Assembly: GCA_016214745.1 (NCBI GenBank)
Contig: JACRNW010000001.1
Span: 1,038 to 65,037, forward strand
Direction of reading: 5' to 3'
DNA length: 64,000 nucleotides
DNA from: Candidatus Falkowbacteria bacterium
GTDB taxonomy: Bacteria; Patescibacteriota; Patescibacteriia; XYB2-FULL-38-15
Shown: in pieces, positions 16,780 to 55,160 of the stretch
Numbering within the stretch: the first letter of the stretch is position 1
Layout: every line of letters starts with the position of its first letter
The notes under the pieces: model-generated
Told to the model about the DNA's origin: nothing
The model's input: the letters and a program-made list of their open reading frames with translations, nothing else
Databases searched by the model: none
Made by a program: the position numbers and the translations under genes

Positions 16780-16851
16780 TCCGAGACTTGGATTCGTCCG
16801 GTCATTCGACCGGACGCCCCGTCGGATGACGGGGCGAACTCCCGCCCTAAT
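16780..16851 (-). repeat. tRNA-linked GC-rich hairpin element, ending in a degenerate copy of the tRNA-Gln 3' end
   Basis: Read in tRNA orientation: after tRNA-Gln comes GGGCGGGAGTTCGCCCCG, then hairpins CCCCGTCatccGACGGGG and GTCCGGTCgaatGACCGGAC, then CGAATCCAAGTCTCGGAG. That last stretch copies the tRNA 3' end CGAATCCAGGTCCCCGAG. Confidence 0.55.
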
Positions 16852-16990: not shown

Positions 16991-17905
16991 TTAAACTTTC
17001 AAGTACCGGCCCACCGCCAAACTACTTGTCACAATATTTAAGAGCACAACGCCCACGAATTGCCAGCCAAAAATCTGAAGAAAATTTTGGGAAAAATAGC
17101 CGAGTAAATTAAATTCCGCGCCGCCGAAAAATCCGGCCAGATACGGTTCGGCAAAACCGATCGCCGGAAAGGTAAGAAGTATCGTAAAGAAAACGGCAAA
17201 AATTCCGTAGAAAACTCCGCTCGCGAGGAATGGCGCCCGGACAAACCAGTTGGCCGCGCCGACCAATTTCATTACTCCTATTTCTTCGCGGTGAGTGTAA
17301 ATCGTCATCCTGACCGTGTTAAATCCGATTAAAACCGCGACAACGGCAAAAAGTCCGGCTATGCCAAACCCCGTACTCTTGGCTTTTTCTGAAATGGAAT
17401 CAATTTTTTTAATTATTGCCTCGTGATCTTCAAAACTTTTCTCTTGAATAATATTTGCGTATTGCGCGTCGTCAAAAACTTCTAAAATTTCCGGGTAATC
17501 GGCGGGGTCATGCGCTTTAACAATAAGGGTCGCGCCGAGCGGATTTTCCCCGACTTCCTCAAGAGATTCTTTTATCACCGCGTCGTTTTCATGTTTTTTT
17601 GTAAAATCCCTGAGCGCCTCTTCCGGCGAAACATAAATTACATCTTTTACTCCAGACAAACTCAAAAGATATGATTTTATATTTCCAATCTCGCTTTCAG
17701 CCACTCCTGGTTTGAAATAAACACTGACGTCAATTTTATCTTCCACTTGGGCGACCGCTGTTTTGGTCAAAAAATTCAAAGTAATCAAAAAATTTATTGA
17801 AACTAAAGTCAAAACTAAAACCACGACCGTGGCCGTAGTAAGCCAAAAATTTCGCCAAAAATCTTGCGAAGAAAATTTAATAATGCGGAATAGCGCTGCA
17901 AACAT
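16991..17905 (-). CDS. ftsX: cell division permease-like protein FtsX
   Basis: N-terminal TM helix, large periplasmic domain and C-terminal 3-TM FtsX domain (GVMKLVGA...). It lies adjacent to ftsE. Confidence 0.85.
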   Translation of the reverse strand: MFAALFRIIKFSSQDFWRNFWLTTATVVVLVLTLVSINFLITLNFLTKTAVAQVEDKIDVSVYFKPGVAESEIGNIKSYLLSLSGVKDVIYVSPEEALRDFTKKHENDAVIKESLEEVGENPLGATLIVKAHDPADYPEILEVFDDAQYANIIQEKSFEDHEAIIKKIDSISEKAKSTGFGIAGLFAVVAVLIGFNTVRMTIYTHREEIGVMKLVGAANWFVRAPFLASGVFYGIFAVFFTILLTFPAIGFAEPYLAGFFGGAEFNLLGYFSQNFLQIFGWQFVGVVLLNIVTSSLAVGRYLKV

Positions 17906-17929
17906 ATGCTAGAATTTAGAAAATAGAAG

Positions 17930-18280
17930 CTAGAATTTAGAATTAACAAAGTTATTTAATATTTTCATCACCTCTACTAAGGTAATCTCTACTCCTTTAA
18001 AACTTAATTTCGGAAATAAAACTTTAGCAATTTCGATCTGGCTTTCCAATTCTGACCCAGAACCAAACGCAACGCACAATAATTGTTTCTTTTCTTTGGC
18101 GTGAAAACGATGATAGCTCTCAGCAATATTGGAAGAAATAGAAATTACAGCTCTTCTCATCTGATTCGTTAAACCATACACTTCAGAATGAGGAAATTCA
18201 TCTGTCAACCGATAAATCTCTACAGCCAAATCACGCGCTTTCTGCCAAACCACCAATTCCTTAAAAGATTTTGTGGCCAT
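17930..18280 (-). CDS. four-helix-bundle protein (23S rRNA intervening-sequence protein family, TIGR02436-like)
   Basis: 116 aa. VVWQKARDLAVEIYRLT...ISSNIAESY is characteristic of this family. It is inserted between ftsE and ftsX. Confidence 0.7.
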   Translation of the reverse strand: MATKSFKELVVWQKARDLAVEIYRLTDEFPHSEVYGLTNQMRRAVISISSNIAESYHRFHAKEKKQLLCVAFGSGSELESQIEIAKVLFPKLSFKGVEITLVEVMKILNNFVNSKF

Positions 18281-18313
18281 AAATTCTATTTTCTATTTTC
18301 TACTTTCTAGATT

Positions 18314-18994
18314 CTACAATACGTATTTTCCAACCTCTTGATCGCTGATAACCGTCCCCTGCTCAAGCGTTACGACTCGCCGGCGCAAAGAATTAACCAA
18401 CTCGCGATTATGAGAAACCAAAAGAACGGTCGTGCCAAACTCATTGATTTTCAAAAGTAAATCAGCGATTTCTCTCGTATTGATTGAATCAAGATTTCCG
18501 GTTGGCTCGTCGGCCACTAAAATCTTCGGCCGATGAATCAGGGCACGGGCGATAGCGACTCTCTGCTGCTCGCCGCCCGAAACTTGTTTTGGATAACGGT
18601 CAGCTTTTTCATCCAAACCGACAATTCTCAAAACTTGCGGAACAATTGTTTTGATTCTTCCAACTGAGGCACCGCAAACTTCAAGAGCAAAGGCGACATT
18701 TTCAAAAATAGTTTTCTTGGGCAAAAGTTTAAAATCCTGAAAAATAACTCCGATCTGCCGCCGCAAAGTCGGAATTTCCGAGCGTCTGATTTTTGTAATA
18801 TCCCAATCGCCGATCGTGATCTTACCGCGCGTCGGACGCTCTTCCGCAGTCAGCAATTTGATAAGCGTCGTTTTGCCGGTCCCCGACTGGCCGACAATAG
18901 AAACAAATTCTCCGGCGTTAATTTTTAAATTTACGCCCTGCAGGGCGACTGTGTTCGGCGGATAAATTTTTTCTATACCTCGAAACTCAATCAT
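18314..18994 (-). CDS. ftsE: cell division ATP-binding protein FtsE
   Basis: Walker A GQSGTGKTT, ABC signature VSGGEQQRVAIARAL and Walker B ILVADEPTGNLD. Confidence 0.9.
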   Translation of the reverse strand: MIEFRGIEKIYPPNTVALQGVNLKINAGEFVSIVGQSGTGKTTLIKLLTAEERPTRGKITIGDWDITKIRRSEIPTLRRQIGVIFQDFKLLPKKTIFENVAFALEVCGASVGRIKTIVPQVLRIVGLDEKADRYPKQVSGGEQQRVAIARALIHRPKILVADEPTGNLDSINTREIADLLLKINEFGTTVLLVSHNRELVNSLRRRVVTLEQGTVISDQEVGKYVL

Positions 18995-19265: not shown

Positions 19266-19282
19266 GTTCGATTCCGGTATCC

Positions 19283-19424
19283 CGCTTTGAAAATACAAAT
19301 AAATTTTGGCGGAATCGAACGGGAAGGGTTTGGGAAACGGGAGTTTCCCACCTTTTCGGCGGAAAACAGTTGGGGAAAACCGCCGGTTTGCCCCAAGCGC
19401 AGTCCCGCCATGGCGGGACGAGTA
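19283..19424 (+). ncRNA. tRNA-linked structured element (copy 1) ending in a duplicate of the preceding tRNA 3' end
   Basis: TTTTGGCGGAATCGAACGGGAAGGG, hairpin GGGAAACgggaGTTTCCC, hairpin CGGCGG...CCGCCG, hairpin GCGCAGTCCCGCCATGGCGGGACGAGTAGTGAG, then ATTCCGGTATCCCGCT, which copies 19250..19265. A homologous copy lies at 28989..29120. Confidence 0.55.
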
Positions 19425-19447
19425 GTGAGATTCCGGTATCCCGCTTT

Positions 19448-20666: not shown

Positions 20667-20778
20667 CTACAAATTACGAATTTTGATACAAATATACAAA
20701 TTCCTTCTGACGCGTTAATTCACCAAAAAATGTTCTTGGCCGTTATTTGTATATTTGTAAATGATTTGTAATTTGTAG
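20667..20778. repeat. MITE-like palindromic intergenic element, family 1 copy R1 (~112 bp: ~35-bp inverted arms + conserved ~45-bp core)
   Basis: Left arm CTACAAATTACGAATTTTGATACAAATATACAAAT. Right arm ATTTGTATATTTGTAAATGATTTGTAATTTGTAG. Core ...GACGCGTTAAT...AAATGTTCTT...GTT. About 80% identical to 55051..55160. Confidence 0.6.
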
Positions 20779-20788
20779 TAATATTTAT

Positions 20789-26459: not shown

Positions 26460-26525
26460 CTACGAATTACAAATTATTTACAAATGTACAAATTTGTATA
26501 TTTGTATTTGATTCGTAATTTGTAG
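26460..26525. repeat. palindromic element, family 1 short copy R3 (arms only, no core)
   Basis: CTACGAATTACAAATTATTTACAAATGTACAAAT directly abuts its inverted partner ATTTGTATATTTGTATTTGATTCGTAATTTGTAG. Confidence 0.55.
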
Positions 26526-28900: not shown

Positions 28901-28973
28901 GACCCGGTAGCTCAGCTGGTAGAGCATCTGCCTTTTAAGCAGAGTGTCCTGGGTTCGAGCCCCAGCCGGGTCA
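28901..28973 (+). tRNA. tRNA-Lys (anticodon UUU)
   Basis: GACCCGG-TA-GCTC-AGCTGGTA-GAGC-A-TCTGC-CTTTTAA-GCAGA-GTGTC-CTGGG-TTCGAGC-CCCAG-CCGGGTC-A. Confidence 0.9.
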
Positions 28974-28988
28974 TTTTTTATTTGCTAA

Positions 28989-29120
28989 TTTTTGGCTGGG
29001 CTCGAACGGGAAGGGGTCGGGAAACGGGAGTTTCCCGATTTGCGGAAATATTAAAACCGCAGGGTTTTAAAGCGCAGTCCCGCCATGGCGGGACGAGCAG
29101 TGAGCGCCCCAGCCGGGTCA
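28989..29120 (+). ncRNA. tRNA-linked structured element (copy 2) ending in duplicate of tRNA-Lys 3' end
   Basis: TTTTTGGCTGGGCTCGAACGGGAAGGGG, hairpin CGGGAAACgggaGTTTCCCG, hairpin TGCGG...CCGCA (compensatory relative to copy 1), GCGCAGTCCCGCCATGGCGGGACGAGCAGTGAGC, then GCCCCAGCCGGGTCA plus TTTTTTATTT, which duplicates 28958..28983. Confidence 0.55.
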
Positions 29121-29141
29121 TTTTTTATTTCCCCATAATTT

Positions 29142-29205: not shown

Positions 29206-29257
29206 TTGAGGTCGCATGGATAGTACTTTCCCAAGACCACAAGAAGGAGGTGGGGCT

Positions 29258-29938
29258 ATGGGTTGTGAAAATGATTTTGACCAGCTACGTGATCTTACCG
29301 CGCGGCAACTGTGGATGGCACTCGCGGCGGCCTACCAGGCGCTCGCGGCGGACGAAGCCCAGATCAGGGGGTTCGGTGCCGTAGTCGTAGAGGCCGATGC
29401 TCGAATCGAGGAACTCGAGAGCGAGGTCAAGCGTCTGCGACGGCTCTTGGGCATTGACTTCTTGACCGGAGTCCCAAATCACTACCACATCATGGGGCTT
29501 CTGGAAAGAGAAATCGATCGCTCTAGGCGTTCCGGCTCCACTTTCAGCCTACTCTTCCTGGACATCGACCGCTTCAAGAACGTGAACAGCAACTACGGAC
29601 ACGAGGTCGGCAGTGCTGTCCTCCACGAACTGGCCAAACGGCTCGAGGCAGCTCTGCGACTCTCCGACGCCTTGGGACGATACGGCGGAGAGGAATTCAT
29701 CTTCATCCTTCCCAATGCGCCGCGAAAGGGAGCGGAAATCGCCGCCGAACGACTTCGGAAACTCGTCGCCGCCGAACCCTTCAAGATCGGCGACAAGTCC
29801 GTGGCCGTGACAGTGAGTATCGGCGTTGCCGAGTTCCGACGGACGGATACGGCGTCAAGCCTGATCGAAGCGGCGGATATGGCCATGCTCCAAGCCAAGG
29901 ACTTGGGCCGTAACCGCGTCGTCTCGGCTGAGCGATAG
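29258..29938 (+). CDS. GGDEF-domain diguanylate cyclase with N-terminal coiled coil, GC-rich (~62% GC)
   Basis: RYGGEEF is the GG[DE]EF active site, with upstream DxLTG-like DFLTGVPNH and ...FLDIDRFKNVN. The likely start is ATG 29258 after a strong SD; the ORF track starts at 29216. Confidence 0.85.
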   Translation: MGCENDFDQLRDLTARQLWMALAAAYQALAADEAQIRGFGAVVVEADARIEELESEVKRLRRLLGIDFLTGVPNHYHIMGLLEREIDRSRRSGSTFSLLFLDIDRFKNVNSNYGHEVGSAVLHELAKRLEAALRLSDALGRYGGEEFIFILPNAPRKGAEIAAERLRKLVAAEPFKIGDKSVAVTVSIGVAEFRRTDTASSLIEAADMAMLQAKDLGRNRVVSAER

Positions 29939-30014: not shown

Positions 30015-31097
30015 CTATCTTTTTATCACTTTTAAAATCTCTTCTGTTATCTTTTCCGCCGCGCCGGAGGGCATAACTTCTTTAATATTTCTGCTCAAAC
30101 TTTCCAATTCTACTTCATTATTTAATAACTCTCCGACCGCTCCGACAAAATTTTCCGGCGTCAAATTATTTTCATCCCAAAAAACGACGGCGTTTTGTTT
30201 TTTAAAATAATAAACGTTTTCTTCTTGGTGACTCCCGGAAATCGGGATCACGGCCGTCGGTTTTCCGAGCATGGCAAGTTCAGTCAAGGTCGCCATGCCG
30301 GCGCGGGAAATCACAAGATCAGCCGCGGCAAAAACATCCGGCAAATCTTTCGTTAAAAAATCAACCGTGTGATAGCGCGCGGTTTCTCTTTTTATATTTT
30401 CAATTTTCATCCGCAACGACTCATCAATTCTTCCTCCGGTCATATGAATAACCTGACAAAATTTTACGAGTTCAAGCGCCGATGCGACAACAATCTTATT
30501 CAACTCCAGCGCTCCCGTCCCGCCGCCCAAAATGAAAAGTATCGGCAGATCTTTTTCCAGATTAAAAATTTCCGCGATTCTCTCTTTGCTTCCGGAAAAT
30601 ATTTCTTGCCGCACGGGATTTCCCGTCACGACGGCGCGAGAAAAATATTTTAGAGAATCGGAAAATGTCACTGTGATAATTTTTGCAAAACGCGCGGTTA
30701 ATTTATTCGCCAATCCCGGCCGGATATCTTGCTGATGAATTAAACTCGGCACGCGCAAAAACCATCCCGCCCAGACGACCGGCACGGCGACAAATCCGCC
30801 GGCCGACAAAATCATCTGCGGTTTAAATTTAAAAATCAGCCAAAGAGATTTAAAAAATCCCGCGAGAAGTAAAAAGGGCATCAAAAAATTCCATCCGGAA
30901 AAATACCGGCGCAATTTTCCCGCTGGCACAGCCGCGAATTTAATATTGCGCGATTCAATTATTTTTTTCTCCGGCCCGTTTTTTGTTCCGAACCAAAAAA
31001 ATTCCGCGTCGGGTACGCGCTTTTTTAATTCTTCCGCCACGGCCAGTAGCGGCGTCACCGATCCCATTGTTCCCCCGCCGGTCAAGATTATTTTCAT
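30015..31097 (-). CDS. murG: undecaprenyldiphospho-muramoylpentapeptide beta-N-acetylglucosaminyltransferase
   Basis: MKIILTGGGTMGSVTPLLAVAEEL...GGGTGALELN...ISRAGMATLTELA. Confidence 0.85.
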   Translation of the reverse strand: MKIILTGGGTMGSVTPLLAVAEELKKRVPDAEFFWFGTKNGPEKKIIESRNIKFAAVPAGKLRRYFSGWNFLMPFLLLAGFFKSLWLIFKFKPQMILSAGGFVAVPVVWAGWFLRVPSLIHQQDIRPGLANKLTARFAKIITVTFSDSLKYFSRAVVTGNPVRQEIFSGSKERIAEIFNLEKDLPILFILGGGTGALELNKIVVASALELVKFCQVIHMTGGRIDESLRMKIENIKRETARYHTVDFLTKDLPDVFAAADLVISRAGMATLTELAMLGKPTAVIPISGSHQEENVYYFKKQNAVVFWDENNLTPENFVGAVGELLNNEVELESLSRNIKEVMPSGAAEKITEEILKVIKR

Positions 31098-31122: not shown

Positions 31123-31714
31123 GGAGTTCACCCTTTAGGGTGTAAGTTCTAATCGCCCTCAACTGTAAAATCCACAATCGGATGTAACTCAAAAACCGAT
31201 TCTATCCACCCCAATCCTCTTTTTCCAATCCACTGCCCAGCGCTTGAAAATGGGTATTGAAAAGCCTCTGTTTGAGTTTTGCACAAACCGTGCTTTACTG
31301 GTTGATGATGAATATAATTAAAGTGCTTCCAAAAATCAACTTCATCGCGAATGCAATGATCCCAATAATTAAACCAAATTTTTCGTTTTTGTACGCGATC
31401 AATTTTATTTAATTGGAAAGCGCTTTTACCATTAATTGTTTGAATAAAGTCGGGTAAATCTTTTCCTCTGGCCATTTTAAAAAGCAGATGATAATGATTG
31501 GAAAGAATGCTCCAAGTATAAAAATTACTCTGAAATTTTCTCCCCGCCTCCCCAATTGTTTTATACAAAATTAATTTTTTATTTTGGCTGGAAAAAAATA
31601 GTTCCTGATTTACCGTTCTCGCCGTAATAAAATAAATTTGCTGGTCAACATACAAATGGGGCGGATAATGTGGTTTGAACATTAAAATATTCTACAGGCT
31701 AAAGCCTGAACTCC
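31123..31714 (-). mobile_element. REP-associated tyrosine transposase (RAYT/IS200-like Y1 transposase) unit flanked by inverted REP-like hairpins
   Basis: The Y1/HuH transposase gene (31149..31682) sits between GGAGTTCACCCTTTAGGGTGTAAGTTC (31123..31149) and its imperfect reverse complement TTCTACAGGCTAAAGCCTGAACTCC (31690..31714). The stems show compensatory changes (CACCC/GGGTG versus CAGGC/GCCTG). Confidence 0.65.
31149..31682 (-). CDS. Y1 (HuH) tyrosine transposase, IS200/RAYT family
   Basis: 177 aa. HYHLLF is the HuH motif, with a conserved Tyr in ...FNYIHHQPVKHGL. The size and motifs fit PF01797. Confidence 0.7.
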   Translation of the reverse strand: MFKPHYPPHLYVDQQIYFITARTVNQELFFSSQNKKLILYKTIGEAGRKFQSNFYTWSILSNHYHLLFKMARGKDLPDFIQTINGKSAFQLNKIDRVQKRKIWFNYWDHCIRDEVDFWKHFNYIHHQPVKHGLCKTQTEAFQYPFSSAGQWIGKRGLGWIESVFELHPIVDFTVEGD

Positions 31715-31729
31715 AAAAAAAATATAAAG

Positions 31730-32833
31730 CTACTCCTTGGAATATTTTGAAATATTTGCCATGATTCCCGCGGCGGCAAGACAAACGGTCAGTGCCGTTC
31801 CGCCGTAACTTACAAAAGGCAAAGGAATTCCGGTCAACGGCAAAATACCCGCCATGGCTCCAATATTTATAAATGATTGCAAAACAAACCAACTCGTAAT
31901 CCCAATCGCGAGCAGCCGACCAAAACCGTCCGGAGCATTTTTGGCGATTTTAAATCCGCGGATAGCCAGAAAAACTAATGCCGCGACAAACAAAATCATA
32001 AAAAGAAAACCCAATTCCTCGGCCATGACGGCAAAAATTGAATCGCCGGCGACTTCGGGCAGATATTGAAATTTTTGCCGTGAAAGACCCAGACCCAATC
32101 CAAAAAATCCACCCGAGCCGATAGCGAGCAGTGCCTGATTGATATGATAACCAACTCCTTGCGGATCAAGTTCCGGATGCAAAAAGGTCATCAATCGCGC
32201 TGTCCGGTAAGGAGCAAATCTAACCAAAAGAAAAAATAACAGTGCTCCCGCTCCGGAAATCCAGGCAAGATGCGAGAGCGGCGCGCCGGCCGCAAAATAA
32301 ACAATCAAAGAAATCATCGCGATTACGGAAAGAGTGCCGATGTCCGGCTGCAAAACCATCAAAACGACAATAATCCCGAAAACCGCCGCAAAAGGAATAA
32401 AACTCGTCCCGGCCTCCTGCATATCTCGCCCGCCGCGTTTTGGCCCAAGCCACGCGGCAAGATAAATTAAAAAAGTCAGTTTAACGATTTCCGCCGGTTG
32501 AAGCGACATGCCAAAAATATTTATCCAACTTTTAGAAGTTCCGTAATCGGCGGCCAAGCCGGGAATAAAAACTAAAAGTAAAAGCCCGATTGAAACAACT
32601 AAAAAAGGCAAGGCGTATCTTTTCCATTTTCGGTAATCAAGCCGTAGCATCAAAAGAAAGGCGATAACTCCGGGCGCCAGGCCAAACATAAGCTGGTGTT
32701 TCAAATACCAATAATTATCGCCAAATCTTTCGTAAGCCGCCGCCGAGCTCGCCGAAGAGAGCATTACTAAACCAAAAACGGCAAGTGCCGCCACAAGACC
32801 AATGAAAACGTAATCCGGTTTTTTCATGGACAC
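31730..32833 (-). CDS. ftsW: SEDS-family peptidoglycan polymerase FtsW/RodA
   Basis: 367 aa, 10 TM helices, dcw-cluster context next to mraY. Confidence 0.8.
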   Translation of the reverse strand: MSMKKPDYVFIGLVAALAVFGLVMLSSASSAAAYERFGDNYWYLKHQLMFGLAPGVIAFLLMLRLDYRKWKRYALPFLVVSIGLLLLVFIPGLAADYGTSKSWINIFGMSLQPAEIVKLTFLIYLAAWLGPKRGGRDMQEAGTSFIPFAAVFGIIVVLMVLQPDIGTLSVIAMISLIVYFAAGAPLSHLAWISGAGALLFFLLVRFAPYRTARLMTFLHPELDPQGVGYHINQALLAIGSGGFFGLGLGLSRQKFQYLPEVAGDSIFAVMAEELGFLFMILFVAALVFLAIRGFKIAKNAPDGFGRLLAIGITSWFVLQSFINIGAMAGILPLTGIPLPFVSYGGTALTVCLAAAGIMANISKYSKE

Positions 32834-40190: not shown

Positions 40191-40282
40191 TTAATTACCT
40201 AATTACAATAAATTACTTAATTACACTTTTTTCTAAAAAGCAACGAGGTAACTGGGCAACTAGGTAATTAAGTAACTCAAAA
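40191..40282. repeat. AT-rich TAATTAC-unit palindromic intergenic element (family 2, copy B)
   Basis: TTAATTACCTAATTACAATAAATTACTTAATTACAC-TTTTTT-...GGTAACTGGGCAACTAGGTAATTAAGTAACTC is homologous to 2089..2168. Confidence 0.5.
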
Positions 40283-41723: not shown

Positions 41724-43340
41724 TTATTTAATAATTTTTACCACGCCGTGATTGGCGTCCACCTCTACTATATCGCCATCTTTTAAAACCTTTGTCGCGA
41801 TTTTGGTGCCGATGACACAGGGAATACGAAGTTCGCGAGCCACAATTGCCGCATGAGAAGTTACCCCACCCTGCTCCGTAACAATAGCTGCGGCTTTTTT
41901 CATGGCTGATACTAAATCTGGATTAGTGGCGATAGAAACTAAAATATCGCCCTTCCGCATCTTTTCCATGTCTTCGGGATTGATAACAATTCTCACCGCA
42001 CCCTTCGCTTTTCCTACACAACCACACTGACCTTTTATTTCGCTGACTTCTTCTGCCCCTTTTTCCCGAACTGATTCCGCTAACCTTTTTGCCTTCTCGC
42101 CCGTAAAGACCACGTCTCTCTCCTTTTCGGCGTAATAAACGCAAAGTTTTGTCCGCTTCTTAATTTCTTTTTTATCAAGTCTACTTTTCAAAAGAGCTGC
42201 CCCAACTTCCTGCGGCAGCATAAATTTTACTTGCATCAAACTCAAACCCAGTCTTCTTCCGATCTCCCGTAAAATCGCTTCCATTTGATAAATAGCAAAT
42301 ATCTGCGCATAACGGCGGTATATTTTTGTAATCATAAAATTGCCAAAAGCATCAAAAATTTTTCTCCAGCCGCCTTTGATTTTCAATTTTTTAATCAATG
42401 CATTTCTTTTTCGAACGCCCACTTTAAACTCCTGCTGCATTTCTTGATATTTCTTTTCCAAATCACCTGATACCACAAGCCTCACCAATTCTTTCAGATA
42501 ATGATCAAAACTGTAAATCCCCTGCTTTTCAGTAAAAAGATATCTCATGTAAAAATACTTAAGATAATGTTTTTCTAAAAGTTTATAAATTTCCGGACCA
42601 ATTCTTTCTTTGATTTTTCCCGCTTCTTGCTCAAACAGTTCTTCATATTTTTTTGAATGGGTTTTAAAACCGTACTTTGTTACCTCCCCCTCTTTAAACT
42701 TTTTAAATAATTCCAGAAATAATTTGAGCTGATTTTTGTCTTGTTGAACTTTTTGACCAATTTTCAAAAGTTCCTCTTGTTCAACTTGAATAAGAGATTT
42801 TTGGATTGGCTGAGTAAGAATGACTAGATGTTCATTTATTTTTTCTTCGGAAATTCCAGCGTCTCGCAGATGCTCTTTTAATCGATTAGTCAGATTATTG
42901 TGAAACATGTCAGCAGCAACCGGAATCCATCCCCAACAATAATAGTCAGTGTGAATTTGGTCATGCTTATTGTAAAATTTCCACAACTCTCGTTTAGACA
43001 ATTGCGATAAATTATCTTGTGGCAAAGTATTGGCGTAATTTCTTAACTTATCTGACCAGATTATAATCTCTTTGTTGACCCGCTCGGCGAACTTTGGATT
43101 TTTAATAAATTTTTGGACTATATTCTCACCAACCTCAAAGGAATCATTTTCCCCGTAATAAAACCAAAGATGATAACCGCGATAAATACAAATAATTTTT
43201 TTATAAGCACGACCAGTGAATCTCTTAAATTCATTAACAAAATTTGAAAGCCAGATCTGAGAAAATAAAAAATCGCAATTTGGAATCTCTTCCCCCAACA
43301 TCCACAAGTCTTTGTCATTTAAATATTTCAGCTTTTTCAT
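41724..43340 (-). CDS. PEP-utilising-enzyme mobile (phosphohistidine swivel) domain protein with ~380-aa helical N-terminal domain, paralog 1
   Basis: C-terminus [30 protein letters not shown]. Confidence 0.75.
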
Positions 43341-44839
43341 ATTTTTAATTGTTTCACAACTTTTATTACTCCTTTTGTAGCGTCGACTTCCACTAAATCT
43401 CCATCTTTTAAAACTTTAGTTGCGATTTTGGTGCCAATGACGCAAGGAATTCCCAACTCGCGGGAAATAATGGCGGCATGGGAAGTTATACCGCCCTCGT
43501 CCGTAACAATAGCCGCGGCTTTTTTCATCAAAGGCACATATTCCGGCCTCGTCATGCCGGCTACTAAAATTTCTCCTTTTTCAAGCTTAGCGCCTTTTGG
43601 ATTTAATACTACACGCACCCGCCCCCGAACTTTTCCTCCGGAAGCCGCTGAACCCTTCAATATATTATCTTTGATTTGAATATTTTGAGCAATGATCTTT
43701 TCGGCAAACTTTAAATATTTTTTTCCAGACAAAATTATTCTTTCTCCGTCGTCTTTGTTAATTGATATAAATAACTTTTGGCGCCGTTTTATTTCTTCTT
43801 TGTCATATTGACCATTGGATTTTAAAAATTCAATAAACTCCGGCGCAATCATAAAATGTAAATCAACAAAGGGGACGTTAAACTTTTTGGCTGCTAATTC
43901 CATAATTGTACCGACGGCGTAATTCATATATAAGCCGGTTTTCTTTCTAGCATCTTGCCAAAAACTGGCCACGGCAAACATTTCTAAAAATTGTGCGTCT
44001 TTTTTTAATATTAAATATTTTTTAATCAATTCCCGTTTTTTAGATTTAATATTTTGTTCGTAGTTTTCCAATTTTTCTATTTCTCCCTTGATCTCCCGCC
44101 GAGATTTACCCCTAGTAAGTTCTTGGGCACTTCGCCAAAATTCCCTTTCGCTCACATTTTTATGTTCATAATAACCATTCTCTATCCAAAAATATTTCTT
44201 TTGATGAGATTGAATTAATTGTTTTATTTCTCGAGAAGCCGATCCGTAAGATTTGATTAATTGATCTTTGGCTTTCAGCGCAATGCGCATCAAACCAAGA
44301 TTATTTTCCGCCGAGAAACTCAAACGAGGCTCTTTTAATAATTTAAACAAATCATCGCCGGAAATTTTATATTTATTCTTTATTCCATTTATGTCCTCTT
44401 CGCCAATCATTGATGGCGCTTCAGGTATTGTGGCTCGCCCAAATTCGTAATGAAATTTTTCGGTAATCAATCTATATGATTCCAACAATGGCAGAAAATT
44501 GTTTCTTGCTCTTTGCTGGACAAGGTCAATAAATTCTTTCGCTTCTTTCTGCCAAATGTCAAAATGGTCTTGCACTTTTTTAATATTTTTCTTAAACCAT
44601 TTATAATTCTTAGCCAATTCCGCCTTGTCAAGCACCCAATGAGCTTTCCTGCCGCCATCAAAAATCACACTAAATAAAAATGTATTCATTGAAAACCCAA
44701 GCGTGTCTTTGCTACCGGCACACCAGGCCTCCTCCGCGAGATCATCAAAATGCGGACGCAAAACCGGACCATAAATAGATTTATCCTTTATTGCCTTCAA
44801 TTTTTCTTCCAATATTTGTAATTTTTCCCGGTCATCCAT
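43337..44839 (-). CDS. phosphohistidine swivel domain protein, paralog 2
   Basis: [30 protein letters not shown], plus the shared N-domain motifs ([12 protein letters not shown]; ...[10 protein letters not shown]). Confidence 0.75.
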
Positions 44840-45118
44840 ATATTTATTTTTTGTTCATGTTTCTTTTTCAGTCTCCTTGTCCAATCTAATCGCGTCGCAA
44901 TAATGCGCAGACACCGCACCCATTTGACAAAATTTTCAAAATAGATTATACTATATTGTTTGGTAAAGGTGAAAAATTGTCTGATTCTAGACAATTTTTC
45001 CCATACTAAATTGCACTTTGATAGTGGGCAAAAATTGTTTGGAGACGCTCTATTTATCTCGGTTGAGGTAACGAGAGCGTCTTCAAACAACCGCCCCGAG
45101 GGGGCAAGGAGGAGATCA

Positions 45119-45727
45119 ATGCCCGCAACGATCGTCGTGGTTCGCCATCCCGAGAAGGACGGAGACAAGATCACCCCGCACGGCGCAGAGCAGGCCTTTG
45201 CGGCGGCGCTGGCGCTCGGCGAACGGTTCAAGAACTTCGAAGGGTTCGACCGGCTCATCCACTCCGGCGCGCACCGCGCCTGGCAAGCGCTCCGCGTCAT
45301 GGCCGCGGCCCTGGGTCTGAAACTCCCGGACGAAGAGCGCTCCTTCTTGAACTTCACGGCCACACTCACGCAGACGCTCGGCAGCTCCGACGCGTTCTAC
45401 GCCGAAGTGGCCAAGATGAAGGCGGCGGAAGGAACGGACCGGCTGACGCTCGCCATGGCGCTCCGCCACAGCGAGTTCGCTCGCCAAGGCCGCCAGATCA
45501 TGATCAATGGTCTCCTCGGTCTTGCCTGTGACATGGCGATGAGGGGCCAGGCGACGGCACTCACCGTTTCCCATTCGCCCTGGCTCGAACTGGCGTCCTT
45601 CGACACCGAGAACACGCCCTACGGCATCGGCGAAAGCGATGCCGTGATCTACGTCGTGGCGGGCGACGAAATCCTCGTCGGGAGCGAACTCGTCCGAGCC
45701 CCGCTCCCCGGCAAGCCGCTTTTCTAG
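45119..45727 (+). CDS. histidine phosphatase superfamily protein (SixA/PGAM-like), GC-rich (~64%)
   Basis: MPATIVVVRHPEKDGDKITPHG (RH-type catalytic motif) and a later TVSHSPW. A strong SD CAAGGAGGAG precedes ATG 45119. The ORF track's longer frame from 44960 is AT-rich leader. Confidence 0.55.
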   Translation: MPATIVVVRHPEKDGDKITPHGAEQAFAAALALGERFKNFEGFDRLIHSGAHRAWQALRVMAAALGLKLPDEERSFLNFTATLTQTLGSSDAFYAEVAKMKAAEGTDRLTLAMALRHSEFARQGRQIMINGLLGLACDMAMRGQATALTVSHSPWLELASFDTENTPYGIGESDAVIYVVAGDEILVGSELVRAPLPGKPLF

Positions 45728-45757
45728 CCTACCTCACCTTTCCCACCGAAGTGCATC

Positions 45758-45796
45758 TCCCACGCCCGGTCTCCTGACTGGGCGTTCTTTTTTTAT
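45758..45796 (+). terminator. rho-independent terminator
   Basis: CACGCCCGGtctcctgaCTGGGCGTTCTTTTTTTATTT. Confidence 0.5.
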
Positions 45797-46051
45797 TTAC
45801 CCTGTTAAATAAGATTTGAGCCGATTCCTTAAAAATAACTTGCCGAGATAGGTCTTTAAATACTTTTCTCTATGGGTGGCATCTTGTTGATTCAAACAAG
45901 CCTCATAATATATTAAAACTAATGGCCCTCTGTCTTTAGTAGATTCAACTTTCCTTTTTTGATGAAGCTCAAATCTTGATTTTAAATCTTTGGTATAACC
46001 TGTGTAGAATTTTTTATCCTTTAAGGACATCAAAACATATACGTAATGCAT
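45797..46051 (-). CDS. GIY-YIG nuclease superfamily small protein
   Basis: 84 aa. HYVYVLMSLKDKKFYTGYTKDLKSRFELHQ is the GIY-(10-11)-YIG module. Confidence 0.7.
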   Translation of the reverse strand: MHYVYVLMSLKDKKFYTGYTKDLKSRFELHQKRKVESTKDRGPLVLIYYEACLNQQDATHREKYLKTYLGKLFLRNRLKSYLTG

Positions 46052-46061
46052 AGATTTAAAA

Positions 46062-47576
46062 TCATTTAACGGGGTGAATTTTTTTAACTACTCCTTTTGT
46101 CGCGTATACTTCAACTAAATCTCCATCCTTCAAAACCTTCGTCGCGATTTTTGTTCCGATGACGCAAGGTTTTTTCATTTCTCGGGCGACAATGGCCGCG
46201 TGGCACATAATGCCGCCTTCGTCAGTGACAATAGCCGCAGCTTTGCGAATGGCGGGCATTAAGTTTGGGCTAGTGGCGGCGGAAACCAAAATATCTTTTT
46301 CATTCATTTTTTTTATTTCTTCGGGAGTATTTATCAACTTCACCTTTCCCCTTGCCTTACCCTTAAAGGCGACTGCCCCAGTAATTTCCTTCACCGCTTT
46401 TATCTCTTTCTCTTTCCCGGCATTCTCGTGAAAAAAATCTTGCGCCTGTTTACCGGTCAGACAAAGTTTTCTTCCGCCCTTTCTCCCGTAAACAACTAAT
46501 TTAATTCGTTCGTTAATAACGCCAGAATTAATTTTCCCCCTAAGCAATGCCTCTTCCATTTCTTCCGGCAACATCATCCTGACTTGTTTCAAACTTAGAC
46601 GTAAACGTTTTGCAATTTCTTTTAGTAAAAATTCTGCGTGATAGTATGACCAGGTTTGTAATTCGCGGCGATAAGGTTTGAAAAAGACCAAATCCCTGGC
46701 TAACTCAATGATATTCCGCTCGTAATCGTTGGCTTTAATTTGTTTTAATATTTTCTTTTGCTGTGATCTAATATCTGATTTACTCTTTTTGTGTTCTGCT
46801 ATTTCCTTGGAGGGATTTATTTCCCGACGAATAAAATCTTTGATTATATCAAGAAAATAAATATGATCTGCCGCCGGTCCCTCGTAAACGTAATGCACCC
46901 AAGCGTATCTTTGGGTATGATTATCCACCAACCGCCAAACTTTTTTATTATTCTCCCTAATATATTTTACTAATTCTTGTGAATCTAAAACTTTAAATTT
47001 CTTTTCCAAATTTTTATATTTTTTAATTTGAATCAAAACTTTCAAGAGATCCAACTCCTGCTGTTTATTAAAGGTTTCACGCAAGGGCGTAGTCAGTTCT
47101 CCAAAATATTTTTCCGCTTTTTTATTTTTAAGAATTCTATTTAATTCATCCGATAAAAAAGTCGTGTTTTGATAATCCAAGAGGGGAGAAATTAAACCAT
47201 ACGCATACACTTCTTGATTTGATAACACATAATGCTGATAATAATTGTTCAAAACTCTATTACTCTTTCCTTTTAAATTACTTTTAAAAATTTTCGTAAA
47301 AGATGCCTGTTCCAAACCAAGTTTTTCCATTTGCGAAAAAATATTTCTCAAAAAATTTTGATTTTTCTTAATTAGTTTTACAATTGCAAAATGTGCCGCG
47401 CCCCAATTACTCGGCAGATGATAATACTCAATCGCGTTATTCTCAATTTTGAAAAAAAGGTCCCCCGACTTCCCTATTATCTTTTTTATATTTTTGCTGA
47501 ACGCTTCTACCATCGTGAATATGGGAAATAGAGAAACAACATATTCATTGGCTATCTTTTGCCATTTTTCTTTCAT
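46062..47576 (-). CDS. phosphohistidine swivel domain protein, paralog 3
   Basis: [30 protein letters not shown], plus the shared N-domain motif QRYAWVHYVYEGP. Confidence 0.75.
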   Translation of the reverse strand: MKEKWQKIANEYVVSLFPIFTMVEAFSKNIKKIIGKSGDLFFKIENNAIEYYHLPSNWGAAHFAIVKLIKKNQNFLRNIFSQMEKLGLEQASFTKIFKSNLKGKSNRVLNNYYQHYVLSNQEVYAYGLISPLLDYQNTTFLSDELNRILKNKKAEKYFGELTTPLRETFNKQQELDLLKVLIQIKKYKNLEKKFKVLDSQELVKYIRENNKKVWRLVDNHTQRYAWVHYVYEGPAADHIYFLDIIKDFIRREINPSKEIAEHKKSKSDIRSQQKKILKQIKANDYERNIIELARDLVFFKPYRRELQTWSYYHAEFLLKEIAKRLRLSLKQVRMMLPEEMEEALLRGKINSGVINERIKLVVYGRKGGRKLCLTGKQAQDFFHENAGKEKEIKAVKEITGAVAFKGKARGKVKLINTPEEIKKMNEKDILVSAATSPNLMPAIRKAAAIVTDEGGIMCHAAIVAREMKKPCVIGTKIATKVLKDGDLVEVYATKGVVKKIHPVK

Positions 47577-47591
47577 ATTTTTACTATTAAT

Positions 47592-49127
47592 TTACTTAAT
47601 TACTTTTACCACTCCCTTTGTCGCGTCTACTTCCACCAAATCTCCGTCTTTTAAAATTTTACTAGCATTTTTTGTACCAATAATACATGGCTTATTCATC
47701 TCGCGCGCGACGATTGCCGCATGAGAAGTAATGCCGCCGATATCTGTCACGAAAGCCGCGGCTAATTTCATGGCTGGCAAAAGCTGAGGAATGGTTTGAA
47801 CTGCCACTAGAATATCATCTTTTTTTATTTTCTTCATCTCGTACGGCTCGTTGATAATTTTCACCACTCCCCTAACCTTGCCGGCGCAGGCAATATTACC
47901 TTTAATAACACCTGTTTTGACTACCCGCTCGATCTGGAATTTTTCTCTGATAATTTTTTCGGCTTTTTCCCCGGTAAAAATTCTTAAATCGTTAAGATCC
48001 TTAACGTAATTTACGCAAAAATTATATCTTTGTCTCAACATGCTAACCCTGGGAATTTTTCCGCCCCTTAGCATTCTAATGAACTCGAATCTGGTTAAAT
48101 TTTGTAAATCCTTGTAATCTTTTCCTGAACTCCGGGCAAATCTTTTTAAGGATAAGGTCAAAAGGTAAAAAGTGAAAAATAGTAATTCTGAACGAATCAT
48201 CTTTGCTCCGGCAAATTCTCGGGCAGTCTCAAAATAATGCCTTTCACCCTCATCCAAATTAAGCTCTTTGAAATACTGCTCTTGCAATTTAATCAAAGGT
48301 CGCAAGTCAACTGATTCTTTTAAATTTCCTAATTCTTTTTTATCTTCTAAAATCACCTCTATTTTTTCTATTAATTTTTTCAGATCCATTTCTGGGCCAA
48401 TGTGACCGTAGTCTATCCATCTAAACTGATAAACCAAATCATTCAATCCCGAGAACAAGGCGGGGTAATTCCTTTTCAATAATGAAAATAACCTTGGGGT
48501 CGGGCTTTCCAAAAAAATATTTTTTATTTTTAATCTTTCTATTTCCTGACAAATATCAAATAATTTCTTTTTAAAAATAAAACTTTTTGTTTTTAACGAT
48601 GTCTTACCTAAAACGCCCACATAACTCCCAAGGGATCTTTTCAATTTATATTGCTCAATCTTTTTATTAACAATTTTTTCCAAAGCGTTGGAAAGCCCGT
48701 AGTGACTTAAATCGGCCATCACTGCTCCAAACCCCACGCTGCAAATTTTAAAAAATGTTTCAATTGCCTCTTCCCATTTATCGGCTATCTTTTTGAAATT
48801 GGGATTTTCATTTTCCAACAAATCAAAGATTTCATAATATTTTTTATAAAGATCAACCGCAATCTCTTCGGTTTTGATCAATATCTTTTTCCCATAATTT
48901 TTTTCACTATGAATCTTCTTGGCAATTTTTTCTCCCAAAACCCGCAAAATATCTGGATTGCAAAACCATTCTTCCGTGCCTCCTTTAAAGAGGACATAAT
49001 TATCTCTCATCCGGGGCAATCCCAAATATTCCTCTATTAATTTATGAGAAAATGCTTCTTGGTTAATGGTAATATTAAGAAAAACGGTATTATTTTCTTT
49101 GTGGGTTGAAACGTATTTCTTTTCCAT
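47592..49127 (-). CDS. phosphohistidine swivel domain protein, paralog 4
   Basis: [30 protein letters not shown], plus the N-domain motif QFRWIDYGHIGP. Confidence 0.75.
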   Translation of the reverse strand: MEKKYVSTHKENNTVFLNITINQEAFSHKLIEEYLGLPRMRDNYVLFKGGTEEWFCNPDILRVLGEKIAKKIHSEKNYGKKILIKTEEIAVDLYKKYYEIFDLLENENPNFKKIADKWEEAIETFFKICSVGFGAVMADLSHYGLSNALEKIVNKKIEQYKLKRSLGSYVGVLGKTSLKTKSFIFKKKLFDICQEIERLKIKNIFLESPTPRLFSLLKRNYPALFSGLNDLVYQFRWIDYGHIGPEMDLKKLIEKIEVILEDKKELGNLKESVDLRPLIKLQEQYFKELNLDEGERHYFETAREFAGAKMIRSELLFFTFYLLTLSLKRFARSSGKDYKDLQNLTRFEFIRMLRGGKIPRVSMLRQRYNFCVNYVKDLNDLRIFTGEKAEKIIREKFQIERVVKTGVIKGNIACAGKVRGVVKIINEPYEMKKIKKDDILVAVQTIPQLLPAMKLAAAFVTDIGGITSHAAIVAREMNKPCIIGTKNASKILKDGDLVEVDATKGVVKVIK

Positions 49128-49136
49128 AAAATATTC

Positions 49137-50675
49137 TTAAATTTTTTTCACAATCCCCCTTGTCGCATCAACCTCCACTAAATCTCCATCCCTCAAAACT
49201 TTCGTAGCAATTTTCGTGCCGACGACACAGGGAATTTTTAATTCCCGAGAGACAATCGCCGCATGGCACGTCAAACCGCCAACGTTCGTAACAATAGCCG
49301 AAGCAAGTTTCATGGCCGGAACAAGAGCCGGATAAGTTGTTTCGCTCAACATCACATCTCCCTTTTTCATTTTTTTCAAATCATCTACTGTCTCAATTAT
49401 TGACACTCGCCCCTTCGCCCTTCCTGGCGAAGCGCAAATCCCAAATAATTTTTCTACTTTTTTAACTTTCTGTTCAACAAATGTAGATCTGTCCAGAAAT
49501 TCCTGCGCCGCCTTACCGATATAAACCACCGGCCGATGAACGCTATCGGTATAAATCAGACTAAAATTATATCTCTCATTTAATTTGTTGGCATCATACT
49601 TATCTTTTAATAATGCGTCTTTCACCTCCCAATTACAGAAAAATCTTACCTGCCTTAAACTTAAACCAAGTCTTCGTCCAATTTCTTTGGCTATTTTATC
49701 CAAAACATAGGCGCCATAATACATACAATCTTTGCGCCAACTCTTCAACCAAACAATATCTCTTGCGATATCAAAAAGTTTTTTCTCTTTCTTGCTAAAA
49801 TTTAATTGTTTAAAAATTTTTACCCTTTTTTTCTTTATCTCCGCAAATTTATTCTTACCCTCTTCTATCAATTCCTCAATATTATTTTGTTTCAGAAGTC
49901 CTCGCCAAATTTCCAAAAAATATTCTAATTCAAGAACTGGCCCTTCGTAGTTATAGTGTAACCAAAGATATTTTTGATAATGCTTTTTTATCTTCTGTTG
50001 TAAAGAGGGGCTAATCTTGTTCAGATTTTTTTTGATCTCATCAATATTATTTTTCAAAAATAAATTTTTTGTTTTCTGATCTTTTTTCAACAACTTAACT
50101 AACTCTAATGATTCTTTTGATTCAATCTCAATAAAACTGGATTTTTCGGGGGTGGTAAGAACACTAAATGTCTCTGATAATTTTTGATCAGATTTAACTT
50201 TCTTTTTTAATAAATCTAAAAGATAATTACTAAAAAGTTGGCGATCAGCTTCCAGGAGCCACGTGGTTATTTGTCCAGGAAGATGAGACCAATATTGGCG
50301 GTCAATCAATTGATCAAAAACTCCCGCCAATTGCTTGCCTGATAGTGCCGAAAAATCTTTATTTTCTAAACTTTTTGCAAAAGAAAAATAATTCTTGGTA
50401 TATTTTACCAATTCTGAATTTCTTTTTTCTGTCCATTCGGGATATTTAACAGTTTTATTGAGCAAAAAATTTATACCCTTAGTAAAATCATCTCTTAAAT
50501 AACAAAGTGTAAGCGTGCCTTCATTTACAATAAATAAAACATGCTTGAAGTGTGGGCCGCCGCCTTTTTTCTCTATGTAAGTACCGTACTCTTCAAGAAA
50601 CGGCACAAGCATAAGGTAGTTGCACTTTGGGATTTTTTCAATTTTGAACCATCTAAATTTCTTTATTTCTTCCAT
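49137..50675 (-). CDS. phosphohistidine swivel domain protein, paralog 5
   Basis: ASAIVTNVGGLTCHAAIVSRELKIPCVVGT, plus N-domain motifs QKYLWLHYNYEGP and [13 protein letters not shown]. Confidence 0.75.
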   Translation of the reverse strand: MEEIKKFRWFKIEKIPKCNYLMLVPFLEEYGTYIEKKGGGPHFKHVLFIVNEGTLTLCYLRDDFTKGINFLLNKTVKYPEWTEKRNSELVKYTKNYFSFAKSLENKDFSALSGKQLAGVFDQLIDRQYWSHLPGQITTWLLEADRQLFSNYLLDLLKKKVKSDQKLSETFSVLTTPEKSSFIEIESKESLELVKLLKKDQKTKNLFLKNNIDEIKKNLNKISPSLQQKIKKHYQKYLWLHYNYEGPVLELEYFLEIWRGLLKQNNIEELIEEGKNKFAEIKKKRVKIFKQLNFSKKEKKLFDIARDIVWLKSWRKDCMYYGAYVLDKIAKEIGRRLGLSLRQVRFFCNWEVKDALLKDKYDANKLNERYNFSLIYTDSVHRPVVYIGKAAQEFLDRSTFVEQKVKKVEKLFGICASPGRAKGRVSIIETVDDLKKMKKGDVMLSETTYPALVPAMKLASAIVTNVGGLTCHAAIVSRELKIPCVVGTKIATKVLRDGDLVEVDATRGIVKKI

Positions 50676-55050: not shown

Positions 55051-55160
55051 CTACAAATTACAAATTTAGTACAAATATACAAATCCTTGCCAACACGTTA
55101 ATCTAATAGAAATGTTCTTCACTGTTATTTGTATATTTGTAAATGATTTGTAATTTGTAG
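55051..55160. repeat. MITE-like palindromic intergenic element, family 1 copy R2
   Basis: CTACAAATTACAAATTTAGTACAAATATACAAAT...CACGTTAATCTAATAGAAATGTTCTTCACTGTT...ATTTGTATATTTGTAAATGATTTGTAATTTGTAG. It fills the whole intergenic gap. Confidence 0.6.

Follow-up and report, generated by a model that had tools for sequence, protein, structure and literature searches.

A probable minimal REPtron between ftsW and murG in a Candidatus Falkowbacteria genome

Gene order at the locus

The stretch of DNA analysed here (termed the window; 64 kb, 42% G+C) comes from contig JACRNW010000001.1 of a Candidatus Falkowbacteria bacterium and contains part of a dcw (division and cell wall) cluster in which mraY, ftsW and murG are interrupted, between ftsW and murG, by a further gene and by two short inverted hairpins, one on either side of that gene (Table 1). 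All four genes lie on the minus strand. The inserted gene encodes a REP-associated tyrosine transposase (RAYT), where REP stands for repetitive extragenic palindrome, and the unit formed by the upstream hairpin (REP-A), the gene and the downstream hairpin (REP-B) is very probably a minimal REPtron--that is, a RAYT gene with a single inverted REP on each side, the GGAGTT tags of both REPs pointing outward. It is a typical example of a known system, one that a current curated model recognizes. The RAYT protein is identical to GenBank MBI5071310.1, and the MurG protein likewise is identical to its GenBank entry.

Table 1. Features around the ftsW-murG junction. Positions are those of the window; empty sites are the ftsW-murG junctions of relatives that lack the unit, and L081 and L082 are two loci with homologues of the transposase (see text).
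Feature	Position	Strand	Remarks
mraY	33898-32843	-	NCBIfam equivalog above cutoff
ftsW (upstream neighbour, left side of insertion site)	31730-32833	-	TIGR02614, 346.6 bits (cutoff 337.5)
AT-rich 15-nt spacer, ftsW stop codon to REP-A	31715-31729		Not in empty sites
REP-A, hairpin upstream of transposase gene	31692-31714	-	GGAGTTCAGGCTTTAGCCTGTAG; stem CAGGC/GCCTG, loop TTTA
RAYT (TnpAREP) gene, 177 aa, intact	31149-31682	-	Matches NCBIfam NF047646, Pfam PF01797 and 4ER8
REP-B, hairpin downstream of transposase gene	31123-31145	+	GGAGTTCACCCTTTAGGGTGTAA; starts 4 nt past the stop codon
REP-B tag, GGAGTT	31123-31128		
REP-B stem, CACCC/GGGTG	31129-31133 and 31138-31142		
REP-B loop, TTTA	31134-31137		
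AT-rich 25-nt spacer, REP-B to murG start codon	31098-31122		Not in empty sites, nor shared with L081 or L082
murG (downstream neighbour, right side of insertion site)	30015-31097	-	TIGR01133, 252.1 bits (cutoff 250.25)

The transposase

A sequence-only reading of the window, which preceded this analysis, had called the gene a RAYT-type Y1 transposase. Its open reading frame starts with ATG and equals those of its homologues in length. The HuH motif is H63-Y64-H65, within NHYHLLF (codons 31488-31496), and the catalytic tyrosine is Y123, within FNYIHHQPVKHG (codon 31314-31316). Residues H63, H65, Y123 and H131 are invariant among 23 homologues; together with Q127 they align to H59, H61, Y115, N119 and H123 of E. 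coli TnpAREP (PDB entry 4ER8; H63 to H59, H65 to H61, Y123 to Y115, Q127 to N119, and H131 to H123), the residues that constitute the active site of that enzyme according to Messing et al. (PMC3479197). The catalytic residues are therefore in place. In addition, the stretch W103...D108-H109-x-x-R112 corresponds to the GTAG-contacting residues W94, E100, H101 and R104 of the E. coli protein; an E-to-D change at the E100 position has been reported for TnpAREP subclasses 2.5 and 2.7 (Quentin et al., PMC6006769).

Profile and structural searches agree with this assignment. The protein passes the NCBIfam equivalog model REP_Tyr_transpos (NF047646) at 97.7 bits (cutoff 80), and the domain search proposed along with the sequence-only reading yields Pfam Y1_Tnp (PF01797) at 33.4 bits. 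The Pfam match would also fit a rival explanation, namely that the unit is an autonomous insertion sequence of the IS200/IS605 family, encoding TnpA only, whose left- and right-end hairpins have been taken for REPs. This is very unlikely: against the curated IS200/IS605 model (NF033573) the protein scores 17.5 bits, well below the cutoff of 55, whereas the RAYT model is passed. Likewise, a profile built from the 23 homologues matches 4ER8 at E = 7e-13 (IS608 TnpA at about 2e-3 and ISDra2 TnpA at about 9e-3), and even a search with the single sequence finds 4ER8 at E = 2.6e-7. An AlphaFold model of the protein (predicted local distance difference test score, pLDDT, 86; predicted template modelling score, pTM, 0.83) has 4ER8 as its top Foldseek match in the PDB (template modelling score, TM, 0.68/0.72; root-mean-square deviation 2.7 Å over 156 columns), the IS200/IS605 transposases IS608 TnpA and ISDra2 TnpA reaching a TM of only about 0.50; no TnpA of IS608, ISDra2 or IS200 is as close to it in fold as 4ER8 is.

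The flanking hairpins

Each hairpin is a 23-nt unit with a 5-bp stem and a TTTA loop (folding energy -4.1 to -4.4 kcal/mol). The two form inverted arms of 22 nt (31123-31144 and 31693-31714) that are 82% complementary, and the four mismatches between the arms amount to exactly two compensatory base pairs, CC/GG in one hairpin versus GG/CC in the other. The sequence-only reading had placed the gene between inverted REP-like hairpins with compensatory stem changes, and this is borne out, positions 31123 and 31714 being the exact outer ends; the hairpin size given there (25-27 bp) is not, inasmuch as the conserved unit has 23 nt and a stem of 5 bp. The hairpin motif occurs twice in the window as against 0.02 occurrences expected from shuffled sequence.

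The presence of one hairpin at each end is again what an IS200/IS605 element would show. In elements of that kind (e.g., IS608 and ISDra2), however, a single strand bears the hairpins of both ends, whereas the hairpins here are reverse complements of each other, an orientation that agrees with the RAYT arrangement.

When REP-A is joined to the inverted REP-B, the doublet folds at -12.2 kcal/mol into a long hairpin interrupted by two internal loops (2x2 each); a perfect hairpin (-26.5 kcal/mol) would result from a hypothetical doublet of REP-A with its own inverse. The asymmetry between A and B is retained across homologues of 71% identity, and by analogy the two variants probably play the role of the Y and Z REP types in the bacterial interspersed mosaic elements (BIMEs) of E. 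coli.

Elsewhere in the window, just downstream of tRNA-Gln, lie two adjacent G+C-rich hairpins (16790-16842), one of which starts with GGAGTTC (GGAGTTCGCCCCGTCATCCGACGGGGC, minus strand) and differs from the REPs in stem and loop. A candidate decayed REP at 18730-18755 was not convincing and was rejected.

Association of the hairpins with the RAYT family

The same arrangement was sought around 80 homologous loci, which show 35-55% identity and belong to Patescibacteria, Chloroflexota, Planctomycetota and other phyla; both flanks were available for 74 of them. GGAGT-tagged hairpins occur on both flanks at 41 of these 74 loci, as against 0.05 expected from dinucleotide shuffles, and their density is 6.7 per kb within the 200-nt flanks versus 0.26 per kb elsewhere. 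In nearly all of the family's flanking hairpins the stem is preceded by GGAGT (or by GGAAT or GGACT); this tag is conserved, and so is the tetraloop, which reads mostly TTTA or TTCA; stems vary between genomes, and a motif within the transposase, W-x-x-Y-W-D-x-C-I-R, varies together with REP type. The hairpins are, in other words, a conserved, structure-constrained class of repeats that is tied to this RAYT family.

Within the family the canonical tag GGAGTAGC is found at seven loci (L008, L010, L013, L014, L025, L031 and L075), of which two from Paceibacterota (L008 and L013) have at least 17 mostly extragenic GGAGTAGC REP copies in about 16 kb. The transposase gene itself has one copy in the window and one at every one of the 80 loci (about 20 kb each), which to that extent argues further against an IS200/IS605 element. 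RAYT/REP systems occur in genomes of Patescibacteria (the candidate phyla radiation); a full-text literature search found no paper linking RAYTs with that radiation in the collection searched.

The same hairpins beside homologues and in metagenomes

Two more closely related homologues reside in unrelated gene neighbourhoods: P0002 (71% identical; locus L081) lies upstream of uvrA, and P0003 (72% identical; locus L082) directly after der/engA. At both loci, as in the window, the CAGGC/GCCTG variant is upstream and the CACCC/GGGTG variant downstream of the gene, and sequence similarity to the window starts and stops exactly at GGAGTT...AACTCC. The REP-B 23-mer is identical downstream of the homologues in L081, L082, L124 and L125 (the last two being relatives described below), the REP-A variant stands upstream of those in L081, L082 and L125, and the inverted arrangement around the gene recurs at all four loci. 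Moreover, L081 contains (at 900-958) a doublet of A and inverted B without a gene.

Metagenomes were scanned with the exact pattern GGAGTTCASSCTTTAGSSTGTAA, in which the four variable stem positions were free to be G or C. The motif was found at 41 loci, 37 of which have no RAYT in the stretch retrieved. Among 22 neighbouring motif pairs, 14 are inverted doublets 3-57 nt apart with their tags outward; tandem arrays are also present (e.g., six copies in L114). All four complementary stem combinations are seen, and both variable stem pairs are complementary in 39 of 40 distinct instances as against 25% expected, although these instances are not phylogenetically independent. The hairpins are thus not unique to the window, occurring both at these metagenome loci and beside the closest homologues of the transposase. 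Doublets dispersed with no transposase nearby are, furthermore, not what an IS200/IS605 element would leave.

The pyrimidine-rich sequence 5' of the tag (T or C at position -1 in 63 of 78 copies and at position -2 in 64 of 78) is reminiscent of CT, the cleavage site in E. coli, although this is only a hint. Hosts of the motif span 32% to 72% G+C, with several contigs belonging to one sample; the preservation of pairing in the same 23-nt REP across such hosts would reflect a tight constraint imposed by the enzyme, horizontal spread, or both. In that sample (Ga0196963; L096, L097, L100, L107, L118, L120, L122 and L123) eight distinct contigs with about 70% G+C carry the 23-nt REP, and on five of them it forms doublets with spacers of 54-57 nt.

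These data also bear on the most trivial explanation, according to which the hairpins have no connection with the gene and are either inverted repeats arising by chance or common intergenic terminators. Short stems and modest folding z-scores speak for it, as does the fit of one hairpin to a terminator-like pattern: in a promoter and terminator scan of the insert, REP-B (on the minus strand) scores as weakly terminator-like and nothing else rises above background. Practically no credence can be given to this explanation, however, in view of the motif count in the window, of identical sequences flanking homologues of 71-72% and 91.5% identity, of the excess over shuffles among the surveyed family loci, and of the covariation within the stems.

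Insertion and inheritance

The order ftsW, REP-A, RAYT, REP-B, murG is shared with L124, L125 and L126 (MurG 88-89% identical), the RAYT of these relatives being 91.5% identical to that of the window. In L129, L130 and L131 (MurG 78-82% identical), by contrast, ftsW and murG are separated by a gap of 1-4 nt, within a gene order that is otherwise kept: mraY-ftsW-murG, a gene for a GGDEF protein, a GT4 glycosyltransferase gene, an M50 peptidase gene and a translin-family gene. Because the site is filled in the nearer relatives and empty in the more distant ones, the cassette was gained once, in an ancestor of the lineage comprising the window, L124 and L125. The suggestion of the sequence-only reading that the mraY-ftsW-murG string had been split by insertion is accordingly corroborated by three empty sites. 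From this perspective, filled (window, L124 and L125) and empty (L129-L131) junctions constitute a natural experiment in which a RAYT and its two REPs were inserted, as a unit, between essential genes; such an insertion bears both on whether RAYTs still move themselves and on the origin of REPINs (i.e., spread REP doublets). Insertion as a unit with a preserved empty site is the sole aspect of the locus that goes slightly past the standard picture, and it leaves the general view of RAYTs unchanged.

The synonymous divergence (dS) of the RAYT gene, 0.32, equals that of ftsW (0.31-0.34) and murG (0.28-0.37), and its ratio of nonsynonymous to synonymous divergence (dN/dS) is 0.13 (ftsW 0.05-0.06; murG 0.17-0.22). 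The equality of dS with adjacent genes indicates vertical inheritance of the cassette together with the dcw cluster, and the dN/dS indicates purifying selection. The base composition of the RAYT gene, in turn, is distinctive: 35% G+C (32% at third codon positions, GC3) compared with 44-47% (GC3 46-48%) for the neighbours, which is consistent with a foreign origin, the donor probably having had a lower G+C content. Evidence that the unit moved as a whole--its occurrence in three contexts, the existence of an empty site and its reduced G+C content--could be claimed for an IS200/IS605 element as well; vertical inheritance, as indicated by dS, counts on the other side.

Between L124 and L125 the RAYT cassette is 100% identical over about 600 nt, the flanking ftsW and murG genes having a dS of 0.17 and 0.29, respectively. 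This suggests recent recombination or gene conversion between the lineages or, alternatively, a chimeric assembly.

Proposed mechanism

Under the REPtron interpretation, the 592-bp unit of REP-A, gene and REP-B (31123-31714) entered the ftsW-murG junction (1-4 nt in relatives lacking it) in an ancestor of the present Falkowbacteria lineage. The end of REP-A lies 10 nt ahead of the ATG and leaves a promoter no space between hairpin and gene; hence the transposase gene is probably transcribed by read-through from the dcw operon. By analogy with E. coli TnpAREP (PMC3479197, PMC6006769), the protein would bind the tagged hairpin in single-stranded DNA, nick nearby (Tyr123 becoming joined to the DNA by a 5'-phosphotyrosine link, and H63, H65, Q127 and H131 holding a metal) and join the ends, thereby spreading REP doublets. 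Given the same cassette in three unrelated contexts together with doublets lacking a gene, it can be argued that the system has been mobile in related genomes.

Several points weigh against this interpretation. Stems of just 5 bp fold with modest energy (z of -1.6 to -3.2). The canonical GT[AG]G tag is absent, the window reading GGAGTTCA with GTTC in place of GTAG; among TnpAREP-like genes, that tag marks most subclasses but is not universal, classes 2.6 and 3 being without it (Quentin et al. 2018, PMC6006769). No third copy of the hairpin was found within the 64 kb by a pattern allowing 3 mismatches, by one allowing 6 substitutions or by a combined tag, stem and loop scan; a scan relaxed to 4 of 5 pairings gave 16 matches, as against 8.6 +/- 2.4 expected, all of which except the two known hairpins are AT-rich chance matches. 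A dispersed population of REPs in the source genome thus is unproven from 64 kb. A clean 592-bp insertion into a junction of 1-4 nt does not explain the AT-rich outer spacers of 15 nt and 25 nt; runs of T on both outer sides make a TTTT target site possible, but this leaves the same spacers unexplained. Finally, activity, cleavage site and mobilization mechanism are inferred by homology only. E. coli TnpAREP alone is known to cleave single-stranded REP DNA as a monomer and in dependence on Mn2+ (PMC3479197).

It may tentatively be proposed that REP-A, RAYT and REP-B together are a self-mobile element--a REPIN with its own transposase rather than an immobile domesticated gene--which jumped, as 592 bp, into the 1-4 nt junction of two essential, translationally coupled genes for cell-wall synthesis within a reduced Patescibacteria genome and whose left and right ends are marked by the asymmetry between A and B. 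The pair of hairpins in three contexts, the empty site and the 10-point drop in G+C are compatible with this proposal and are not proof of it; the same facts would fit acquisition by recombination or transfer without self-transposition.

A rather unlikely, though still appreciable, alternative is that the cassette is a relic or is purely domesticated: it would then move nothing in this genome, which would have no REP population, and would persist as a passenger or as a modulator of the dcw transcript. For example, and with no greater likelihood, the hairpins might act at the RNA level, affecting stability or attenuation from their positions between ftsW, the transposase gene and murG. Only two hairpins occur in 64 kb, the position has been stable across lineages that have diverged to a dS of about 0.3, the gene runs in the same direction as the operon with no space left for its own promoter, and REP-B constitutes a weak terminator-like site on the minus strand; moreover, E. 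coli TnpAREP is auto-inhibited and strongly down-regulated (PMC3479197), and RAYTs generally are housekeeping-like (PMC5581495). On the other hand, a dN/dS of 0.13 and intact catalytic residues imply selection on the protein itself, beyond that on the hairpins; the cassette occurs in three unrelated contexts and both hairpin variants in doublets that lack the gene; and 64 kb is only part of the genome.

Comparison with known systems

One of the closest known counterparts is TnpAREP of E. coli K-12 (YafM; 4ER8), which shares with the protein described here a Y1 HuH fold, the H-u-H motif, a tyrosine on helix alphaD and an N or Q plus a histidine as further ligands, as well as a stretch (D-H-x-x-R here) matching the GTAG-binding residues E100, H101 and R104. 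The E. coli REPtron likewise consists of a gene flanked by inverted tagged hairpins of paired subtypes, Y and Z there corresponding to A and B here. Protein identity, however, is just about 24%; there is one REP on each side instead of three doublets; the stem is of 5 bp, unbulged and closed by a TTTA loop, whereas that of E. coli REPs is longer and bulged; the tag is GGAGTT(C) rather than GTAG; and the host is a small-genome member of the Patescibacteria, with no dispersed copies in the 64 kb examined.

In REPIN-RAYT systems of Pseudomonas and Enterobacteria (Bertels and Rainey 2011; Bertels et al. 2017), as in genomes related to this one, a RAYT is paired with dispersed inverted doublets; no duplicate RAYT was seen in the window or the fetched loci, and vertical inheritance and purifying selection at the locus are also in common. 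Unlike in those systems, the gene and two REPs have here changed genomic position between lineages, and the empty site persists in relatives. TnpAY1 subclass 2.5 is characterized by short REPs, a tag 1-2 nt from the stem and replacement of E100 by D (Quentin et al. 2018, PMC6006769). Going by that description, the present system is similar in having a short REP (foot plus stem of about 10-11 nt), D108 at the E100 position and conserved W, H and R, and is dissimilar in that its tag is not GT[AG]G. With IS200/IS605 TnpA (IS608, ISDra2) it shares membership of the HuH/Y1 superfamily, recognition of single-stranded hairpins and a Q following the tyrosine helix (Q131 in IS608); it departs from them in its inverted hairpins, its failure against the curated IS200 model, its weaker structural similarity and a gene that occurs once in the 64 kb and once per retrieved locus.

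Other repeats and cassettes in the window

The sequence-only reading had also raised the possibility that the transposase mobilizes repeats found near tRNA genes of the window. These share neither tag, loop nor stem with the flanking hairpins, which rules them out as targets of this RAYT; they are a separate element of about 120-147 nt with a core of about 120 nt and with the hairpins GGGAAAC-GGGA-GTTTCCC and GTCCCGC-CATG-GCGGGAC. One copy (28959-29130) is a 147-nt insert that immediately follows tRNA-Lys(ttt) and has as its boundary an exact direct repeat, 25 nt long, of the tRNA 3' end and trailer (GCCCCAGCCGGGTCATTTTTTATTT), and L129 and L130 have an empty site at that position. A second core of about 120 nt (19270-19447), between tRNA-Gly and tRNA-Thr, is bounded by a different repeat, GATTCCGGTATCCCGCTTT. 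Pairing between the 5' end of the core and the duplicated strand of the T stem is possible in both copies and is accompanied by compensatory changes. An Rfam scan of the window matched four tRNAs only, the element itself having no match. The block resembles a small element with tRNA 3' ends as its targets.

A second class of repeats consists of long AT-rich palindromes with TTTGTA-like units and CTAC...GTAG ends, all of them intergenic. Those at 20728-20780, 26460-26525 and 55051-55160 were considered as the genome's REPINs and were rejected: they end in 5'-CTAC, lack a 5' tag and bear no relation to the hairpins beside the transposase gene. In L130, the counterpart of the 26460-26525 site holds a comparable palindrome, though with another sequence.

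Another cell-division gene pair is split by a small cassette of the form inverted repeat, gene, inverted repeat, the second such case in the window. It occupies 17909-18310, between a gene for an FtsE-like ABC ATPase (18314-18994) and ftsX (16991-17905); inverted repeats of 31 nt, with 87% complementarity, enclose its gene, the 116-aa product of which is a '23S rRNA intervening sequence protein' (PF05635, 100 bits).

The gene for a GGDEF diguanylate cyclase (29216-29938) between tRNA-Lys and murG initially seemed G+C-rich from its protein composition; it keeps the same position in L125, L129 and L130 and therefore is not a recent acquisition. Lastly, a 23-nt inverted repeat, AGTTACTTAATTACCTAGTTACC, has two 96% complementary copies 38 kb apart (2094-2116 and 40255-40277), and a 214-nt segment recurs five times within 41736-49359, at a spacing of 1.5-2.7 kb and with 67-72% identity, its copies probably representing a run of paralogous genes.

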